Shown in pieces: positions 8,393-32,910 of a DNA stretch of 64,000 bases (within the stretch, counting starts at the first letter, position 1; every line of letters starts with the position of its first letter). The notes beneath the pieces were generated by a model. It saw only the letters and a list, made by a program, of their open reading frames with translations, made no database searches and was not told where the DNA came from. Location of the stretch: assembly GCA_014905635.1 (NCBI GenBank), contig JABVCE010000003.1, positions 186,001-250,000 of the forward strand. The letters run 5' to 3'. Origin of the DNA: Scenedesmus sp. PABB004. Taxonomy: Eukaryota. The translations under genes were made by a program, and so were the position numbers.

Positions 8393-8958
8393 TTGCGGCT
8401 GAAGCGCATCCTGTTTCTCCGTCGCTGTAGTTACGTGGTTAGAATTCCACGTTGTGGCCGTGGAGACGCGGGCTCGAATCCCGCCAGCGACAGACGTTTT
8501 AAACACTTTTGGACCCATTTTGGACGCAAAATGTGTCGCAAAGTGATGTGGTGATGTTTTGGGGCGGCGCGGGGCCGCTGCCGTGACGCCCGCTGCTGGC
8601 CCGCTGCTGCTGCCGCCGCTGCTGCCGCCGCTGCTGCCGCCGCTGCTGCTGCCGCTCGCGGCCATGGGTGTCGACAGCAGCAGCAACAGCACTGAGCAGC
8701 AGCACGGGCGCGGGGCCCAGCAGCGGTGACTGCATGCTGGCTGCGGTCGTGCGGCGGCCGCGGTGCAGCGGCGGGGTTGGGCGCCCCAACCGCGCCGCGC
8801 CCCGCCCACGCCAGTCCGCAGCGCCTCCGTCCACGCACTGCCCTCCGTCCACCGCCGGTACGACGAGCGCTGACACGCCAAGACCAGGGCGCCAGGGGCC
8901 GGGGAGCATCGGCCGCTGCCGCACCGCCCTTGCCGCCGCCGCGCCGCGGCGCAGGCCG
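8393..8958 (+). repeat. Left arm of ~565-bp inverted repeat (partner 13751-14315), contains tRNA-His
   Basis: ttgcggctgaagcgcatc...gcgcaggcc is the reverse complement of 13751-14315, with scattered substitutions and small indels. Confidence 0.95.
8421..8492 (+). tRNA. trnH-GUG: tRNA-His(GUG), variant copy with altered D-arm/A-box (possible pseudo-tRNA)
   Basis: Acceptor stem GTCGCTG/CAGCGAC, anticodon arm CCACG-TTGTGGC-CGTGG, T arm GCGGG-CTCGAAT-CCCGC, T4 terminator at 8497. Reads TAGTTACGTGG where the partner copy has TAGTTTAGTGG. Confidence 0.85.
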
Positions 8959-10035
8959 CACCCGCGCCGCGTCCGCTCCGTCCCGCAGGGAGTATGCCTG
9001 GAAACCAGGACGCGGCGCGCGGCGGTGGCGGCGGCGGGGCAGGGCGCTCCAGCGCCCGCGCCTGCTGCTGCTGCTGCCGCTGCGGCGCCGCCGCCGCGGG
9101 GCCCGGCCGGGCCCGGGGCGCCGCGCGGCCCGCGCGGGACGTGCAGCGCGCTGTGCGACGGCCCGTCATCGCGTCGCCGCTGCGCGCTGCGGCGGCGGCC
9201 GCATAAAGCCGCCCCGCCCCCCTTTCCCCCCAACGGCGCCCCCGCGATGCGCTGGATCCCACACCCGCGCCGCCGCCCGCGCCGCGCCACGCTTTGGCCG
9301 CGCCGCGCCGCGCGCCGCGCGCGCCCGCCATGGCGGCCCCGGGGCCGCCCCCGCCGGCCCTGGGAGCCGGCGGGGGGCCGCCCGCCCCCGCCGCCCCCGC
9401 GGGCGGGCCGCCGCAGCAGCAGCAGCAGCAGCAGCAGCAGGGCGCGGCGGCCGCCGCGGCCGCCGCGGCAGAGGCGGCGGCCGCCGACAGCGACGCCGAG
9501 GCGGCCAACGACGACGACGACGGCGCCGGCGGCGGCGGCGGCGGCTGGGCCGCCGGCACCGGCGCCCCGCGCGGGGCCGAGGTCACGGCGGCGGCCGTCG
9601 AGCAGCATACGGCACAGGGCGTACGGCAGCGACTGCCTGATCGTCTGATCGTCTCGGCCGTAATCGCCGCGCCCGACGAGCGGCGCTGCGCGGAGCAGGT
9701 GCGGTGGGCGGCGCGCGCGCTCGTCGACGCCGGCACGCCCACGAGCTGCATCGCGCACTCGGGGAAGGTGCGCGCCGCGCCGCGCCCGGGCAGCGCCCGA
9801 GGCGGTCACGGTCGCGGCTGGGCCGCGCGCGCGCGCCGTCGCGCCCGCGCCCCACGCCCCAGCCCCGACAACCCCCGCCGCCGCCGCCGCCCCGCCCTGC
9901 GCCCCCGCCGGGACGCCCCGACGCCCCAGCCGCGCCCCGCCGGCCGCCTGTCCGCCGCGCGCTTCACCATGGTGCTGGTGTTCCCGGTGCGCCGGGGCGA
10001 CCTCGCGCGCGGGCACGCAAGGCGGGCGCGCCATT

Positions 10036-10073
10036 GTTTGGAGGTTGACCGCGGCCGCGGTCAACCTCCAAAC
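10036..10073. repeat. Perfect 38-bp palindrome
   Basis: gtttggaggttgaccgcggccgcggtcaacctccaaac is its own reverse complement. Confidence 0.97.
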
Positions 10074-11371
10074 CACCTTGTGTGCCCGCGCGCGCCCGGG
10101 GCCGCGGCGCGGGGCGGGCTGGGGCGCGCGCGCGCGCAGCCTGCGCCGGCGCGCCGACTGCTCCCGCCGGCGTGCCGCCGCCGCCGCCTCCGCCGCCGCC
10201 GCGGCCGCCGCGCGCGCGGCCGCCCACGCGCGCAGGGGCCGTCCTTCCTGCACGTCGCGCACGGCGGCGACTACCCCGCGCGCGTGCTCGCGCTGCTGAC
10301 GCTCGCGGTGGGCAACCCGACCGCGCCGTACAGCATCGCCGTGCTCGAGGCGCTGGACATGCGCTGCAAGCCGGCCGACTGGGCCAAGCCCGAGGCGGGC
10401 AAGCTGAGCGCGGCGGCGGTCGCGCACCACGCGTACACGCACGCCAAGGGCATGCTCGGTGCGCGGCCGGGGGAGGCTCGAGGGCGCTGCCCGCCTGCGC
10501 GCCGCGGCGGGGCGCGCGCCGGCGCGTTGTCTTGCTCGCTTGGCTCACCCCCGGCCGCCGCCGCTCGTCCGCTCTCGCCCGCAGTCAAGGCGCTCTACGC
10601 CCGCGCGGCGGACGTGCTCTGCGCCAGCGTGCAGCCCGACGCGCCGGGCGCGTCGTTTCTCGACCCCGACTGCGCCGTCAAGCTCGACCACCTGAGCGCG
10701 GAGCAGCAGCGGCGGCCTGCCCGTGACGCAGCATGCGCGCGCTCGCGCGCGCGCGTGCTGCGTGCTGTGCACGCGCGAGTGCGTGCGACCTGTGCCGCGC
10801 AGCACGGCGCGTGTGACCGCACGCCCGTCCACACGCCCCCCCACCCCCTCCCCTCAGGCTGAGCGCCGTGGGCGCGCCCGTGCTGGCGATGTTTGCGGGC
10901 GGCGTGCTGCTGCCGCTGCTGCGCCTGATCGACGGGCCCGACGGCGTCATGGGCCTGCTGCTCCCCCGCAAGCGCATGGGCATGCTGGAGCTGAAGGTGC
11001 GCCTGCGCGCGCGAGGGCCCTGCCTGCTGCCGCTCTGATCAGAGCGCGCGTGCCGCCGCGGCGCCGCGCCGCCGCGCTGACTGCCACGCCCCGGCCCGGC
11101 TGCCCCTCCCCTCCCCTCCCCTCCCCGCCGCGCCACACAGAACCTTGTGCGCCTCGAGATTCACAGCAGGACCGCGGGCATCCCGCTCGGCCTGGCGGCA
11201 GTGTACCACCGCGGCGAGCGCACGATGACTGCGTTCTACGCCGAGGCGCGCGCGGACGGCTTTGCCGTGACCGTGGGCCTCGCCGAGGGCCCCGGCGACG
11301 GCGAGTCGGTGGCGCTCGTGCACCGCCCAGTGGCGTTCCACTTCCACGGCCGCGAGCCCGACAACGGTCCG

Positions 11372-11477
11372 CACGAGCTCGTCCAGCGCGGTTTGGACGT
11401 CCACGTCGAGCTCACTGATCTCGACCTTGACAAGTGAGCTCGACGTGGACGTCCGGACCGTGCTGGACGAGCTCGTG
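11372..11477 (+). repeat. Inverted repeat/hairpin, 45-bp arms with 16-nt loop
   Basis: 11372-11416 pairs with 11433-11477. The three differences are all G-U pairable on the + strand. Confidence 0.95.
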
Positions 11478-13750
11478 GTGACCACCAAGCCCAACAAGAA
11501 GACCAGCGGTGCGCAGCGGCCGCGCGCGCCGCGCGCGCGCGCGCGCGGGCGGGTGGTGCAACCATCCCCGCGCCCGCCGCCCACCCTGCCCCCACCGCCC
11601 GCCAGGCCCCAAGCCGGCCATGACGCCTGTGGGCCCTCCCGCTGTGGCGCTCGCGAGCGCCCCCATGCCCCGCGTGCTCATCGACACGACGACGCGCGCG
11701 CCCGGGCTGTACGTCGCCGCGGTCATCGCGCCGTGCCTGTTCTCGCAGGCGTGCGTGTCGGCGGAGCTGCTGCGCGCCGCCGAGGCCGAGGGCCTCGTCC
11801 CCGGCCCCGTGCACCTGGGCACCCCCAGCGGCAACGCGGTGCGAGCGCGCGCGCGCCGCGCGGCGGCGGGCGGCGCCTCTGCACCGCGCGCACGCCTTGC
11901 CCCGCCCGGCCCGGCCGCCGCCGACACATCCCTTCTCCCTGTGCCCCCCCCCCCCCCCCCCCCCAAACCTGCCCCGCGCGCCCAGGGCGCGCTCGCGATC
12001 GCGACCGACCTGGACGAGGCGCTGCGCGCCAACCCCGGCCTCGCGCAGGGGCCGGTGCTCCTCGCTGCGAACCCCGCCGCCATCAGGAAGTACGAGGTGC
12101 GGGCGCCGGTGTACGATGACCGCCCCGCGCCCGCGCGCCCGCACCGCCCGCCCACGCCGCGCTCAGGGCGTGCGCAAACCACTCGGTTTGCGCACTTCCA
12201 CTCGGTTTGCGCACTTCCTGAGCGCGGCGTGGCTGCTGATGGTGGAGGAGCTGACCGGCCTGGCCGAGGTGATGGGGGCGCTCGAGCGCTGGGCGCTGGG
12301 CGACGCCGGCATGACAGCGGCCAAGATGACCTCTCGCTCGCGCAGCCGAGGTGCTGATGCCGGTCGCCTCGCCGGCGCTGCGCCTGCGGCCGCCGGGCGA
12401 GGGCGAGACCGCGGGCGAGACCGCGGCGCGCCTGCGCGCGCTCGCGCCGCGCGCCTCCGCCGTGGCGCTCGCGGCGGAGGTGCAGGGGCTGGGCGGGGAC
12501 GCCCTTCGCTTCCCGTTTGCGGCGCTGGCCGACGCCCGCCGCCTCGGCCCGGGCTGGTGCGCCGCGGCGGCGCGCGGCATGCTCGGCGGCGCGCCGGCGG
12601 CGGCGGGGGCGGCGGAGGCAGAGGCGGCGGCGCCCGCTGCGGCGCAGCAGCCCGGCGCCTCGACGAGCGCTGCCGCGGCGGCGGGCGGCGCGGCGCCGGG
12701 CAGCCCCAGCCACGCCGCCGGCGGCGTGGCGGCCGCGGCGTCCACGCCGCCGCCGCCGGCCGCGCTGCGCCAGCGCCTGGACGCGGTCGGCACGGCCGCC
12801 GTCACGCGCCCCGTCGACGACCGGTCGCCGCGCACCGCGCACGGCGGCGCGGCAGCGCACGGCGCGGGCGAGCGCGGCGGCGGCGCGCCGGCGCCGGCGC
12901 GCCAAGGCTTCAAACCCCCGGTGCGCACGGGCGCGAGCGCGGGCGCCTCGGGCAGCGGTGCGGGGCCCGCGGCGCCGGCGCCGGCGGCGGCGCCGCCGCC
13001 GCAGCGGCACCAGCAGCAGCAGCAGCAGCAGCAGCCGCGCGCGTGCGCCGGGCTGTTCAAGCCGGCGGCGGCGCGAGGCGGCGCGCGCGCACGGCGCGGG
13101 CTCGCACGGCGGCGGCGGCGGCAGCGCGGGCAGCCACCGGCGGACGCCACAGCGGCCAGGGTGCGGCCTGGGGGGCCGCCGCGGCAGCGGCAGCGGCCGC
13201 GGCGCGCAGCGGCAGCGGCGCGCAGCGGCGGCAGCTCACCAGTAGTGCGTCGGCACAAACTGGATGCGGCGGCCGCCGTGCTTGGCCGCGCGGCGGACCA
13301 GGAGCTCGCACTGGCTCAGCGAGGAGTACATGGGCTGATACTCTGCGCGGGCGCGGCGCGGGGGCGACGGGGGGCGGGATGGCGGGAGCGCGATGGCGGG
13401 CGGCGTGAGGCGGCGGGGCGGCGGCGCAGCCGGGGCCGGGGCTGCAGCCGGCGCGCGAGGCGGGGCGGGGTGTCGCGGTGTGATGCAAGGCGGGGTGGGG
13501 CGCGGCGCGGCGGGGCGAGACGGGGCGCGGCGGGGCTCGCGGGCCGGCGGCGTGCGGCGAGTGTTTGCCCGCGCATGCTGCTGCGCTCCCGCCACAGCAG
13601 TTGTCGTAGTGCTGCCGAACTGCGCGGCAGGCTTTGGGCAGGTGTGCAAGCCTGTGCCCCTATGCCGTACGCGCTGCTTTGCCTCACCGCACCGCTCAGC
13701 GCCCCACTAAGGAGGCGCGCCCTGGCTCAGAACGTGTAACGGCGCGGCGT

Positions 13751-14315
13751 GGCCTGCGCCGCGGCGGCGGCAAGGACGGCGCGGCAGCGGCCGATGCTCC
13801 CGGCCCCTGGCGCCCTGGTCCTGGCGTGTCAGCGCTCGTCGTAGCGGCGGTGGACGGAGGGCAGTGCGTGGACGGAGGCGCTGTGGCGGACTGGCGTGGG
13901 GGCGCGGCGCGGTGGGCGCCCGCAGCCGCGCCCAACCCCGCCGCTGCACCGCGGCCGCCGCACGACCGCAGCCAGCATGCAGTCACCGCTGCTGGGCCCC
14001 GCGCCCGTGCTGCTGCTCAGTGCTGTTGCTGCTGCTGTCGACACCCATGGCCGCGAGCGGCAGCAGCAGCGGCGGCAGCAGCGGCGGCAGCAGCGGCGGC
14101 AGCAGCGGGCCAGCAGCGGGCGTCACGGCAGCGGCCCCGCGCCGCCCCAAAACATCACCACATCACTTTGCAACAACATTTTGCGTCCAAATGGGTCCAA
14201 AAGTGTTTAAAACGTCTGTCGCTGGCGGGATTCGAGCCCGCGTCTCCACGGCCACAACGTGGAATTCTAACCACTAAACTACAGCGACGGAAAACAAGAT
14301 GCGCTTCAGCCGCAA
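13751..14315 (-). repeat. Right arm of ~565-bp inverted repeat (partner 8393-8958), contains tRNA-His
   Basis: Reverse complement of the left arm; homology stops at ..cagccgcaa|ttaggg. Confidence 0.95.
14217..14288 (-). tRNA. trnH-GUG: tRNA-His(GUG), canonical copy
   Basis: GTCGCTGTAGTTTAGTGGTTAGAATTCCACGTTGTGGCCGTGGAGACGCGGGCTCGAATCCCGCCAGCGACA forms a full cloverleaf close to plant cytosolic tRNA-His. It has a downstream TTTT and an upstream TTTATATT element. Confidence 0.96.
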
Positions 14316-17071: not shown

Positions 17072-18353
17072 CTAGTCCTGCCTCCCCGCGCGCAGCGCGT
17101 CCACGCTGAGCGCGCCGGGGCCCGCGCCCTGCGCCTGCATGAGCACCAGGCCGCCGGCGACCGCCACGTTGGCAAAGAAGCTCTCGCGCGCGGTCGCGCG
17201 CAGGGCCCAGCTCGGCCAGCGCCCGTCCCACCAGCTCCACGCGCTGACCGCATGCAGCAGCAGGGCCGCGGCCAACGCGCGCGCCACGACGCGCGTGCGC
17301 ACGCCGAGCGCGAGGGGCAGCGCCAGCGCGCACTGGCCCAGGAGCAGCCAGCTGTCGCGCGGGTCGGGGCGGCCGTAGTGTTGCGGGGCCCCCTCGCCGC
17401 CGCCAAAGCGCGCGGCCTCCGCGCGCGCGCGCATGCGCTGCACCTGGCGCGGCGGCGGCGCGCGGGCGGCGAGGCGAGGCGTGGGCGGCGAGGCCGCACG
17501 GCGCGAGCCGAGCAGCGCCGCCGGAGCGCCGGCGGCGCGCTACGCGCGCGCGCCTGGCTCCAGCCGGCGAAGACGAGCAGGGCGGCGACCATCAGGCGGC
17601 CGAGCAGCAGCAGGGTGCTGCGTCGCGCGCCGGGCCGGGGCGGCGCGTCGCTGGCGCGCAGCAGGCCCGCCGTGCGGAGCGCGCGCCGGCGCCCGTCAGT
17701 CAGCGAGTCGGCCAGCACCATCGCGGCGGCACCGACCAGCGCCAGCTGCTTCACCAGCAGCTCGGTCAGCCGCGCCCTGCGGCGTGCGGCGCGGGCTCGG
17801 GGGCAGCTGGGCGGCAGGGCACCGAGTCGCACACGTGCCGCCGCCGCCGTTCCGCAGGGGCGCTCACCCGTGCAGCAGCATGCCCTTGAGCAGCCGCCAC
17901 GTGAGCCACGCGTCTTTGCCGGCCGTCCAGGCCAGCAGCGCCGCCGCGCACGCCCACGGCGACCCCGGGTGCGCCGCGGCGAGCGCGGCGGGCAGCACGC
18001 CCAGCACGTGACCGAGCGGGAAGCGCACGCCGCCCGCCGCCGCGGCCTCGTCGGCCCAGCGCGCCACCGCGCGGTGTGCCTCCGGCGTGCGCAGGTGGCG
18101 CCACGCCTCGACCTGAGCGGCGCGGATGGGGCGGCGGCGCGCCCGCAACGCGGCGCGCTCGGCGGCGCGGGCGCTGCCGCCGGCGCCGTTCCCGCGCCGC
18201 GCCCGCGCCCGCGCGCCTCACCTCGCCCCACACCGCGTTAACGAAGTAGGCCGCCACCATCGCCCGCGCAGCAGCGCGCGCGCCGCCCGGCGCGAGCCTG
18301 GCGGCGAGCGCGTGGCGCGCGGCGCCCAGGTCGCGCGGGCGCGCGGCGGCCAT
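17072..18353 (-). CDS. SURF4/Erv29-DoxX-like membrane protein, 4 exons
   Basis: LLVKQLALVGAAAM, LLLLGRLMVAALLV and C-terminal ESFFANVAVAGGLVLMQAQGAGPGALSVD resemble SURF4 family motifs. No C-terminal KKxx. Confidence 0.7.
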
Positions 18354-31460: not shown

Positions 31461-32910
31461 ATGGTGCGCGCGGCGCCGGCGGGCGGGGGCGGCGGGCGGC
31501 GATGCGATGCGGCGCCGAGGGGGGCGGCTGCGGCGGGGCGCTGCTCCGCGGCCCGCCCGTGGGCGGAGAAGGGTGGCGCGGGCGTGCTCGGCGGCGCGGC
31601 GGCCGTGGGGCCGGCGGGCGGAGCAGCAGCCGATCCCTGCCGGCCCGCGCCCCCGCCCCGCGCAGGGCATCGACCTCATAGCGGGCGGCCGCAACAAGAA
31701 AACGGCCCGCACCGCCCCCAAGTCTGACAATGTCTACCTCAAGCTGCTGGTGAAGGTGCGGCCGCGGCGGCGCCGGCGGCGGCGGGCCATCAGCAGCAGC
31801 AGCGCGCCGCGCCCGCGCCCGCCCGCCGCCGGCGCCGCCGCCCACGCGCGCGCGTGCGCCGGTCCCGCAGCTGTACCGCTTCCTGGTGCGCCGCACAGAC
31901 AGCAACTTCAACCAGGTGGTGCTGAAGCGGCTGTTCATGTCCAAGACCAACCGGCCGCCGCTGTCGCTCTCCAAGCTCGCGCAGTTCATGGCCGGCAAGG
32001 TGCGCGAGGAGAGGGGGGGGGGGTGGATCCAGCACGCAGCGCCAGCTCCAGCGGGAGCCGCGCCGGGGCGGCAGCAGGGCGCGCCGCCGGCGGGGCGGCG
32101 CAGGCGCGGCGGGGGCCGACCGCGGCACGCCGCCGCCGCGCAGGAGGACAAGATCGCGGTGCTGGTGGCGACCATCACCGACGACAGCCGCCTGTTCGAG
32201 GTGCCCAAGCTGCGCGTGTGCGCGCTGCGCTTCACCGAGACCGCGCGCGCCCGCATCGTCAAGGTGCGCGGCGGCGCGCACGGCGCCAGCGCGGCGGCAG
32301 CGGCTGGAGCCGCAGCGGCAGCGGCTGGAGCGGCAGCGGCTGGAGCGGCAGCGGCTGGCGGTGGCGGTGGCAGGCGGTGACAACAGGCGGCGGCAGCGCC
32401 CAGCGGCAGCCGGAGGCGGTGGTTGCGGCCCCGTTGCCCGGGCACGCTGCTGCGTGGCCTCGTCCCTCGCGGGCGTGCTTCGCTTGGCCATGCCCGCCAG
32501 CGATGAGGCCACGCTGCTGCGTGCGCGGGCATCGGGCGAGAGCGGCAGCGCCGCGCCGCCGCACAGCACAGACGCTGCGCCCGCACCAGAGCGGCCAGCA
32601 GGGCCGCTGGGGCGGCAGCGCCCGCTGCCGCGCCGCCTGCGTGCCGCCGACGCGTCCCGCCTGCCCGCGCGCTGCCCCGCGCCCGCAGGCCGGCGGCGAG
32701 TGCCTGACCTTTGACCAGCTGGCGCTGGAGCGCCCGACCGGCAAGGACTGCGTGCTCCTGCGCGGCCCCAAGAACAGCCGCGAGGCGGTCAAGCACTTTG
32801 GCCCCGCGCCCGGCGTGCCCCACAGCAGCACCAAGCCCTACGTGCGCGCCAAGGGCCGCAAGTTCGAGAAGGCCCGCGGTCGCAGGAAGAGCCGCGGCTA
32901 CAAGGCCTAA
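31461..32910 (+). CDS. RPL18: 60S ribosomal protein L18 (eL18), 5 exons; first coding exon is the ATG only
   Basis: [65 protein letters not shown]../[38 protein letters not shown]. Confidence 0.97.
32430..32536 (+). ncRNA. Pre-miRNA-like hairpin in RPL18 intron 4
   Basis: Ungapped 48-position stem, 32430-32477 with 32489-32536, containing six 1x1 mismatches, two G-U pairs and an 11-nt loop. Confidence 0.55.

Follow-up and report, generated by a model that had tools for sequence, protein, structure and literature searches.

A coding exon of a green-algal gene folds back on itself, and what it carries is, in our judgement, probably a real and fairly young template-switch scar within a lineage-specific gene. 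The fold-back observation as such is real and confirmed. Within the 64 kb stretch of DNA that was analysed (the window), a repeat search returned an inverted repeat with 51-nt arms (11366-11416 and 11433-11483) that are 90% complementary and separated by 16 nt. The core of this repeat comprises 45 nt per arm (11372-11416 and 11433-11477; Table 1), with 42 of the 45 positions matching. Exactly three positions in the core depart from Watson-Crick pairing (11388 G/11461 T, 11393 T/11456 G and 11394 T/11455 G), and all three are G·U pairs on the + strand RNA. The repeat search and position-by-position pairing confirm the 45-bp arms, the 16-nt loop and the three G-U arm differences that had been described in an initial annotation of this DNA. 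A 19-nt arm pattern, allowing up to 3 mismatches, occurs nowhere in the 64 kb window except at the two arms (expected number 0), and tblastn with the right-arm peptide gives a minus-strand match at 11416-11366 (82% over 17 aa).

Folding predictions agree with the pairing. The + strand RNA of the hairpin has a minimum free energy of -109.4 kcal/mol (z = -14.67), compared with a mean of -47.3 (sd 4.2) for shuffled controls, none of which (0 of 200) folds as well. The antisense RNA is nearly as stable as the sense RNA (-102.0 kcal/mol, z = -13.7). By this folding model, transcripts of either strand must form the 45-bp stem.

Table 1. Positions of the fold-back, the exon that holds it and the repeats of the surrounding region, counted from the first base of the window.
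Feature	Position	Strand	Description
Left arm	11372..11416	+	45-nt inverted copy of the right arm; putative inserted part
Spacer (hairpin loop)	11417..11432	+	16 nt; putative native coding sequence, now inverted
Right arm	11433..11477	+	putative native coding sequence, outgoing frame; codon starts at mod 3 = 0 score LLR +10.0
GGTC, candidate microhomology of the first switch	11366..11369	+	native upstream coding; pairs in register with GACC 11480-83
GACC, partner of GGTC	11480..11483	+	beyond a 2-nt mismatch from the core arms
Single G at the left junction, untemplated in a simple switch model	11371..11371	+	11371 G versus 11478 G mismatch
Exon holding the lesion	11141..11508	+	AG acceptor 11139-40; GT donor 11509-10 (phase 1)
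TGA premature stop	11435..11437	+	incoming frame; 71 nt upstream of exon end
Second fold-back of the lesioned gene	10004..10094	.	intronic; RNA z = -7.65
Third fold-back of the lesioned gene	12152..12232	.	29-nt arms, 93% complementary; RNA z = -7.49
Large inverted repeat, left copy	8415..8962	.	tRNA-His(GTG) 8421-8492 (+)
Large inverted repeat, right copy	13741..14294	.	tRNA-His(GTG) 14217-14288 (-)

The reading frame changes within the lesioned exon. Judged by codon-position GC, codon starts fall at mod 3 = 2 between 11141 and ~11370; the remainder of the exon, beginning somewhere in 11405-11433 and ending at 11508, has them at mod 3 = 0. Splice joins keep the frame on both sides, with phase 0 at 10996 to 11141 and phase 1 at 11508 to 11606, and the exon at 11606 has codon starts at mod 3 = 1. 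Codon-position GC and the splice sites thus bear out the frame change and the TGA that the initial annotation had reported. As assembled, the exon contains one stop and has the wrong donor phase. The 46-nt net gain shifts the frame by +1 and so brings the TGA into frame, which means that the gene as assembled can make a truncated protein only; nonsense-mediated decay may act on its mRNA.

The same annotation had proposed that dropping 11371-11416 and inverting the loop repairs the exon. This repair does yield a clean frame, with no stops and the correct donor phase, but it is not unique. Three alternative deletions, of 61, 106 or 118 nt, likewise restore the frame, so frame arithmetic alone does not prove this particular reconstruction. 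When the right arm is deleted instead of the left, the donor phase stays wrong.

A double template switch (A-C'-B'-C), suggested from the outset, appears to be the most economical and best-supported origin of the lesion, with an ancestral state that is reconstructed from the sequence and not proven. In its favour are the in-frame inverted loop, codon periodicity and microhomology; a protein word search, HMMER and metagenome contigs yielded no relative that displays the pre-event state. Read as its reverse complement, the loop gives five codons (VKVEI), all five of which end in G or C (P = 0.0128); 8 of its 16 nt are G or C. Over the 20 codons of the inverted loop plus right arm, GC at codon positions 1/2/3 is 0.80/0.15/0.95, in register with the downstream exon, and the corresponding values for the gene's exons are 0.746/0.51/0.954. 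Third positions hold at most one of the 22 A/T bases in this segment (P = 1.9e-4; 5.8e-4 when three frames are allowed for). The loop plus right arm has a GC content of 0.623, lower than all of the 602 intronic and 637 exonic 61-nt windows tested, and is thus atypical for exons and introns alike.

As in a template-switch product, a template lies nearby, the arms being 16 nt apart, matching at 42 of 45 positions and unique in the window. The GGTC/GACC microhomology at the switch point supplies 4 bp that hold the arms in register, evidence that is weak on its own. The right arm contains many short palindromes (GAGCTC twice, GGACGTCC, GTCCGGAC and ACGAGCTCGT), which support fold-back priming. A simple switch model leaves one junction base unexplained. 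The odd base at the junction could alternatively be the A at 11432 rather than the G at 11371.

Codon usage bears on which of the two arms has changed. Minus-strand codon periodicity of the left arm was considered as evidence and withdrawn, since the arm is coding-like in the incoming + frame too (LLR +8.3), and periodicity therefore cannot mark the left arm as the copy. The arm is coding-like in both readings because it is built from self-complementary codon strings. The left-arm copy, as read, has CAA where the right arm has CGG. CAA is absent from the gene's putative exons, where CAG occurs 18 times, and codons ending in A or T are rare (27 of 540); the TT at 11393-94 is thus probably derived, reflecting a CC-to-TT change in a copy that is now non-coding.

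A plausible course of events would begin during replication or repair synthesis, when the growing strand would leave its template after GGTCC (11366-70) and prime at the end of the present right arm, either on the opposite strand or on its own sequence. It would then copy 45 nt and the preceding 15-16 nt backwards before returning to where the right arm starts. This would leave the order upstream exon, inverted right-arm copy, inverted native spacer, right arm. The three arm differences would represent later or event-associated changes of the C-to-T type. A hairpin produced in this way would have no evolved function; should the gene be transcribed, it could still serve incidentally as a Dicer-like substrate.

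The exon lesion appears to be a further case of a known kind, the template switch. Template-switch mutations described in PMC10710096 (Proc Natl Acad Sci 2023) can create perfect stems in a single step, invert the loop and produce inverted repeats in combination with direct ones, and an older quasi-palindrome correction model is cited there. Similar to those mutations, the algal lesion presumably arose in one step as a near-perfect inverted repeat beside its template, with the intervening sequence inverted and a stem of miRNA-precursor size. The cases presented in PMC10710096 were placed on phylogenies with reconstructed ancestors, come from primates and rodents, lie mostly in introns or other non-coding sequence and include some annotated miRNAs, whereas the algal case lies within a coding exon, destroys the frame, comes from a green alga and has an ancestor deduced from one sequence.

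The host appears to be an unannotated gene without detectable relatives. No homologues came up in a word-based protein search that used the upstream 77 aa of the exon, HMMER with 10182-10700 gave 0 hits against 1.84 billion representatives, and the best ESM Atlas score was 0.77, below any useful level. Pfam matched none of 7 ORFs of the gene, and a Pfam scan over 148 ORFs spanning 1-26319 likewise gave no match on the ORFs of the gene. A single metagenome locus recovered from 594 pattern matches was rejected as spurious: it is a bacterial short-chain dehydrogenase-like stretch that aligns with 36% identity over 64 columns with gaps, on a contig of 64-69% GC. No annotated protein matches, so the case for a working gene before the event comes only from codon periodicity and consistent splice phases. 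Low-complexity candidates dominated a neighbour search that used the Mpv17 ORF. A frame change near 12330-12350 resembles a second frameshift; because formal spliced paths exist (an 82-nt intron at 12269-12350 or a 176-nt intron at 12170-12345), the remainder of the gene is not claimed to be broken.

The same origin could have produced an active hairpin, in which a Dicer-like cut would destabilise the mRNA in cis and/or release 20-24-nt small RNAs directed against the gene, an intact allele or paralogues. We consider this unlikely. The predicted fold does provide a stem of 45 bp where a miRNA or hairpin-siRNA precursor has at least ~21 bp; it is fully paired on the sense strand around a 16-nt loop, and all three arm differences retain pairing as G·U. 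That pattern, however, would arise by chance in 1/8 of cases, or 1/4 if the adjacent pair is one event, and it equally fits a strand-biased C-to-T change on the coding strand; the near-equal stability of the antisense RNA also argues against activity. A stem so long and perfect resembles an siRNA hairpin more than a refined miRNA precursor, and matches to Rfam miRNA families are far under their gathering scores (mir-549, 30.7 bits versus 93; mir-969, 29.1 versus 61), none reaching threshold. The initial annotation had named paralogues as possible targets of silencing; tblastn of the right-arm peptide found no paralogue of the lesioned exon, and hence no such target, within the 64 kb window.

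What is known of Chlamydomonas lends the active hairpin some plausibility. The window comes from a chlorophycean alga or from DNA almost identical to that of one, and an exon next to the lesion shares 100% identity with a protein of Scenedesmus sp. PABB004. Chlamydomonas DCL3 is described as cutting mRNAs with miRNA- or siRNA-like stem-loops (PMC4817775). Among the DCL3-sensitive RNAs that this source reports, one gene has a miRNA precursor in a coding exon and three have siRNA precursors in coding exons; in Chlamydomonas reinhardtii, cleavage by DCL3 reduces the host mRNA in cis whether or not small RNAs are detected. The present hairpin resembles these in being a stem-loop in a protein-coding exon of an algal host of the same class. 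It differs in being known from sequence alone, whereas the DCL3 loci reported there are experimentally defined and lie mostly in UTRs and introns (PMC4817775). Template switching has likewise been described as giving rise to new miRNA hairpins (PMC10710096), and the concept of a hairpin giving rise to small RNAs is already published, as set out in PMC10710096 and PMC4817775. Both arms consist of sequence from the host exon itself and thus, as in a proto-MIR, are homologous to a protein-coding gene; the hairpin does not stand apart from an intact founder, and the duplication lies inside the sole copy seen in the window.

The inverted-duplication model for plant MIR genes reportedly goes back to a founding Arabidopsis paper of 2004. 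The initial annotation named inverted duplication as an accepted way for plant miRNAs to arise, which agrees with the accounts in PMC3237417 and PMC1790633. As in the model described there, the algal arms copy coding sequence, and a small RNA from them would be complementary to its founder. There, the MIR locus develops from an inverted duplicate that is separate from the target gene, and the target itself remains intact (PMC3237417, PMC1790633). The algal duplication, in contrast, is 45 nt long, lies within the founder gene and inactivates it, with no second copy in the window.

We regard it as quite improbable that the template-switch scar is instead an assembly or consensus artefact, in which case the organism's DNA would lack the 46-nt inverted copy and the gene would be intact. 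Three features would suit an artefact: an extremely high GC content (75-82% over the window, and 78.5% in the matching assembly according to Table 1 of PMC12571836), the high contiguity of that assembly (77 contigs, N50 1.3 Mb), from which long reads seem likely, and two further odd fold-back or duplication structures in the lesioned gene. Long-read fold-back artefacts, however, have kilobase-scale arms at the ends of reads or contigs, and these 45-nt arms lie mid-contig. The arms also differ at 3 positions, unlike an in-vitro copy, and the junctions place the inverted spacer as in-frame coding sequence, which would not be expected of a random artefact. A fold-back of equal geometry elsewhere in the window, older and diverged, further argues for a process in the genome itself.

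It is also very unlikely that cryptic splicing removes part of the hairpin, restoring the frame so that a slightly altered full-length protein is still made. A dynamic-programming gene model (imposed intron minimum 55 nt) stays open only via a 58-nt intron running from 11381 (GTCCAG) to 11438 (GAG), and there are 194 formal GT/GC-AG removals that restore the frame without a stop, such as the 121 nt from 11318 (GTGCAC) to 11438. These sites are nonetheless poor. The gene's other donors read GTGCG(C/G/A) except for one GTCGGC, most of its acceptors are CAG, and none of the 194 combinations pairs the usual GTGCG donor with a CAG acceptor. At 58 nt, this intron would also be the shortest in the model, whose 11 others measure 97-259 nt, and it lies near the imposed minimum. 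The lesion would lead gene predictors to invent this intron, masking the frameshift.

A foreign or mobile origin of the entire palindrome (106 nt, or 118 nt), as a MITE-like or introner-like insertion and not a copy of native exon, strikes us as highly improbable: removing 11372-11477 or 11366-11483 also gives an open frame without a stop, and GC in the segment (0.62-0.67) is below every other 61-nt exon or intron window of the gene, but the 64 kb window holds no second copy, the flanks show no direct target-site duplication (GGTC/GACC being complementary, not direct), the GT-AG pairs that could serve as splice boundaries are poor, the arm and inverted loop have a codon periodicity in register with the downstream exon that is unexpected for a non-coding element, and repeats are reported to make up only 1.31% of the matching assembly (PMC12571836, Table 1).

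The template-switch reading also draws on the surroundings of the lesion, where the window contains four complex fold-backs, three of them inside the lesioned gene. The second fold-back of the gene comprises a perfect 19+19 palindrome without spacer (10036-10073) and flanking 22-nt arms that are 91% complementary; at this intronic palindrome Rfam gave a MIR156 match of 24.1 bits versus a gathering score of 62. The third has a 19-nt tandem duplication (12181-12199 and 12200-12218) between and within its arms and in this respect resembles the combined inverted and direct repeats described in PMC10710096. The older, diverged structure at 32430-32536 has the same geometry as the hairpin at 11372-11477. 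Under a 3-mer complexity filter, which excludes the target hairpin itself, we counted 2 complex hairpins in the real window and 0 in 30 dinucleotide shuffles. The comparable fold-backs in the window show that the template-switch process is active in this genome.

A GGTTTG/CAAACC motif was considered as a shared element signature and rejected. Seven of its sites fall in 10069-12916, but 3 of these are copies of one duplicated unit, and the window as a whole has 12 sites versus 8.5 expected, a count reached by 19 of 100 shuffles. The site in the target hairpin stems from the TT differences.

The lesioned gene sits between 550-bp inverted repeats, each with a tRNA-His, and the clustering of its three fold-backs between these inverted tRNA genes hints at local replication trouble. 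It is conceivable, at long odds, that the 4.8-kb segment between the inverted tRNA-His genes is an error-prone hot spot of template switching, where forks stall at the tRNAs or the 550-bp repeats and have left three scars, the youngest of which killed the coding function and made the mRNA a Dicer-type substrate in one step. If this were true, a chlorophycean alga would have been caught at time zero, just as one of its genes died and a small-RNA locus was born.

Template switching is a proposed one-step route to perfect RNA hairpins and hence to new miRNA genes. Most examples of template switching are old and have been reconstructed on trees. The algal case is unusually clean and seems to be young, as its 45-bp arms differ at only 3 positions, and its host belongs to the class of Chlamydomonas, where hairpins in exons are known to be substrates of Dicer-like enzymes. 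It would offer a case in which to ask whether an mRNA with a newborn perfect hairpin is processed immediately.

The hairpin under study lies within the exon at 11141–11508 of the + strand. A repeat finder returned inverted arms of 51 nt that are 90% complementary across a 16-nt gap (11366–11416 and 11433–11483), and a pair-by-pair check of the 45-nt core found exactly three non-Watson-Crick positions. Outside the core, a 2-nt mismatch (11370–71 vs 11478–79) is followed by four pairs that join GGTC (11366–69) to GACC (11480–83). Folded as RNA, the + strand reaches −109.4 kcal/mol, a value equalled by 0 of 200 shuffles (mean −47.3, sd 4.2; z = −14.7). The values for the minus strand as RNA and for the + strand as DNA are −102.0 and −62.9 kcal/mol (z = −13.7 for each). 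Searching the whole window for a 19-nt arm pattern, with three or fewer mismatches allowed, gave the two arms only, where 0 sites are expected. The hairpin is present in the sequence far beyond chance, and RNA from either strand must form the stem. The repeat finder, the pair-by-pair check and folding together reproduced the 45-bp arms, 16-nt loop and three G·U differences of the initial annotation.

Coordinates of the hairpin, its gene and the surrounding repeats
Feature	Coordinates	Strand	Details
Hairpin core arms	11372–11416 / 11433–11477		45 nt
Arm difference 1	11388 G / 11461 T	+	G·U
Arm difference 2	11393 T / 11456 G	+	G·U
Arm difference 3	11394 T / 11455 G	+	G·U
Modelled exons of the hairpin gene	9330–9767, 9930–9986, 10236–10458, 10585–10651, 10858–10996, 11141–11508, 11606–11838, 11986 onward, then further	+	codon-position profile and dynamic-programming model
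Second fold-back	10004–10094		intronic; perfect 38-bp palindrome 10036–10073 (19+19, spacer 0); RNA z = −7.65
Third fold-back	12152–12180 / 12204–12232		in the hairpin gene; arms 29 nt, 93% complementary; RNA z = −7.49
Fourth fold-back	32430–32474 / 32492–32536		mismatch-tolerant scan; 45-nt arms, 17-nt spacer; RNA z = −7.56
Large inverted repeat	8415–8962 / 13741–14294		about 550 bp
tRNA-His(GTG)	8421–8492	+	outer end of left repeat copy
tRNA-His(GTG)	14217–14288	−	outer end of right repeat copy

The window has a G+C content of 75–82% throughout, and the 148 open reading frames scanned (positions 1–26319) include PHD finger, cyclophilin, DRY_EERY, Mpv17/PMP22, SURF4, Gemin5 TPR and WD40 domains, which mark eukaryotic genes. 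A SURF4 exon (17075–17539, minus strand) matches an NCBI protein named from Scenedesmus sp. PABB004 at 100% identity, and its second-best match is in Chlamydomonas schloesseri (62% identity). Table 1 of PMC12571836 lists the PABB004 assembly at 39.8 Mb in 77 contigs (N50 1.3 Mb), with 78.5% GC, 7,092 genes and 1.31% repeats. The host is a chlorophycean green alga with extreme GC content.

Since open reading frames are uninformative at 75–82% GC, we modelled the hairpin gene from its codon-position GC profile and with a small dynamic-programming model that uses GT-AG introns. The resulting + strand gene has an ATG start at 9330, spans 9330–13340 and shows clear codon periodicity, with GC of 0.746, 0.51 and 0.954 at the first, second and third codon positions of its putative exons (390 codons). 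It contains long stretches rich in Ala, Gly, Pro and Gln, and a long C run (about 25, at 11931–11965) lies in the intron just 5′ of the acceptor at 11983–85. Pfam gave no match to the gene, a word search found no relative of the 77-residue upstream part of exon 11141–11508, HMMER retrieved 0 proteins for 10182–10700 from 1.84 billion representatives, and the ESM Atlas gave no score above 0.77. The sole metagenome match, to a bacterial dehydrogenase motif, was spurious. Across these searches the gene has no detectable relatives. The collection searched includes the annotated protein of a neighbour but no match to the hairpin gene, so public annotation apparently lacks a protein built from these exons. 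As the annotation lists just 7,092 genes, this omission is weak evidence on whether the gene functions.

Splice phases agree on both sides of exon 11141–11508, being phase 0 from 10996 to 11141 (codon starts at mod 3 = 2) and phase 1 from 11508 to 11606 (mod 3 = 1). Within the exon, codon starts lie at mod 3 = 2 before the hairpin and at mod 3 = 0 after it, the incoming frame meets a TGA at 11435–37, and the assembled exon contains one stop and reaches its donor in the wrong phase. Codon-position GC and splice phases thus bear out the proposal that the exon is entered in one frame and left in another. The frame is broken across the hairpin and a stop follows; the protein would stop short once the upstream part of the exon has been read, and decay of the mRNA may follow. 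Under our gene model, rescue through splicing seems unlikely. The model keeps the frame open only by calling a 58-nt "intron" that would run between 11381 (GTCCAG) and 11438 (GAG), where the other 11 introns measure 97–259 nt. The 194 formal frame-restoring GT/GC-AG removals include none in which a GTGCG donor, the usual one in this gene, is joined to a CAG acceptor.

The initial annotation noted that removal of 11371–11416 with inversion of the spacer gives a clean frame, and read the result as an A-C′-B′-C double template switch, in which the left arm is an inverted copy of the right arm and the spacer is inverted. This repair does yield 0 stops and the correct phase, but it is not unique. 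With arms whose length is divisible by three, deletions of 61 nt (left arm and loop), 106 nt (whole palindrome) and 118 nt (extended palindrome) repair the frame equally, so frame arithmetic shows just a net gain of 1 mod 3 and does not by itself single out a template switch.

Support for the template switch comes from composition. The spacer has 8 G/C in 16 nt. Read as its reverse complement, in the only frame continuous with both flanks, it gives five codons (VKVEI) that all end in G or C (P = 0.0128). Inverted spacer and right arm together read as 20 codons with GC1/2/3 of 0.80/0.15/0.95 and a periodicity in register with the downstream exon; at most 1 of 22 A/T bases falls at a third position (P = 1.9e-4; corrected for three frames, 5.8e-4). 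Removing the right arm rather than the left leaves the wrong phase. Given this composition, register and phase, the sequence is best read as a probable native right arm and inverted spacer with a copied left arm, which would be exactly the two-switch template-switch pattern. According to PMC10710096, such events give perfect stems in one step, invert loops, and leave inverted repeats combined with direct ones. The GGTC/GACC pairing, which holds the arms in register, is plausibly the priming microhomology, and the palindromes of the right arm (GAGCTC twice, GGACGTCC, GTCCGGAC and ACGAGCTCGT) would favour fold-back pairing. One junction base, G 11371 or A 11432, is untemplated under a simple switch model. 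Loop and right arm have a GC of 0.623 and are AT-richer than all the gene's other 61-nt windows that were tested (0/602 in introns and 0/637 in exons reach this level), which counts against a simple native origin. Minus-strand periodicity of the left arm does not decide that it is the copy, since this arm is coding-like in the incoming + frame too (LLR +8.3).

Where the arms differ, the left-arm copy has CAA and GCG, and the right arm CGG and GTG. The putative exons never use CAA (CAG occurs 18 times) and rarely use codons ending in A or T (27/540). TT at 11393–94 therefore most likely arose later, by CC-to-TT change in a copy that no longer codes; for the third difference, the right arm has undergone C-to-T at a CpG or the left arm A-to-G. 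As C-to-T changes on the + (coding, non-transcribed) strand, all three would leave G·U pairs automatically in the sense RNA. Strand-biased C-to-T change is in keeping with general mutation biology. On that condition the retention of G·U pairs, correctly described for the sense RNA, would need no selection on RNA structure; its chance is 1/8, or 1/4 with the adjacent pair counted as one event.

A proto-miRNA or siRNA precursor had also been proposed. Rfam returned generic matches far under threshold (mir-549, 30.7 vs 93 bits; mir-969, 29.1 vs 61), and the hairpin belongs to no described miRNA family. According to PMC4817775, Chlamydomonas DCL3 cleaves mRNAs with stem-loops, and the DCL3-sensitive RNAs reported there include coding-exon precursors of a miRNA in one gene and of siRNA in three, together with nine fold-back mRNAs without clear small RNAs. 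Since DCL3 cuts stem-loop mRNAs in Chlamydomonas, a candidate small-RNA role would be reasonable for this clade.

Perfect stems of 14 nt or more with loops of at most 80 nt number 15 across the window. Just four are not pure G/C low complexity, and these represent three fold-backs, all in the hairpin gene. The intronic one lies 17 nt 3′ of a GTGCGC donor; its palindrome is centred on CCGCGG|CCGCGG and flanked by 22-nt arms (91% complementary), with a 10-nt left-side bulge. The third is combined with a 19-nt tandem duplication (12181–12199 and 12200–12218). Its left arm holds a consensus-like GTGCGC donor (12170) and CAG acceptor (12164–66), and several different splice paths can formally be drawn around it. 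The fourth has nearly the geometry of the studied hairpin and is older, with seven mismatches (six of transversion type); it sits in a stretch without codon periodicity flanked by two coding stretches. No complex hairpin arose in 30 dinucleotide shuffles of the window, under a filter that drops the studied hairpin too.

The whole hairpin gene is contained in a 4.8-kb segment (7.5% of the window) between the copies of a large inverted repeat, whose aligned blocks are 85–100% identical. Each copy begins 6 nt ahead of its tRNA gene, and the two tRNA genes face inward. Given the studied hairpin, the chance that at least two of the three other strong fold-backs fall in this segment is 0.016, or 0.048 with a looser list of five others; the clustering hints at a local hot spot, and no more. 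The stretch 10069–12916 (about 3 kb) has seven of the 12 GGTTTG/CAAACC hexamers in the window, at roughly five independent sites, a local excess; the whole-window total is not above chance (12 vs 8.5 expected).

The plant inverted-duplication model places the hairpin locus apart from an intact founder gene, a defining feature that this hairpin, within the only gene copy in the window, lacks. It does show a nearby inverted copy and a switch-point microhomology, as template-switch mutation products do, and probably an inverted spacer. Overall, the fold-back is real and clean, probably young, and best read as an example of a known mutational mechanism, unusual in having hit a coding exon and in its setting among other fold-backs.
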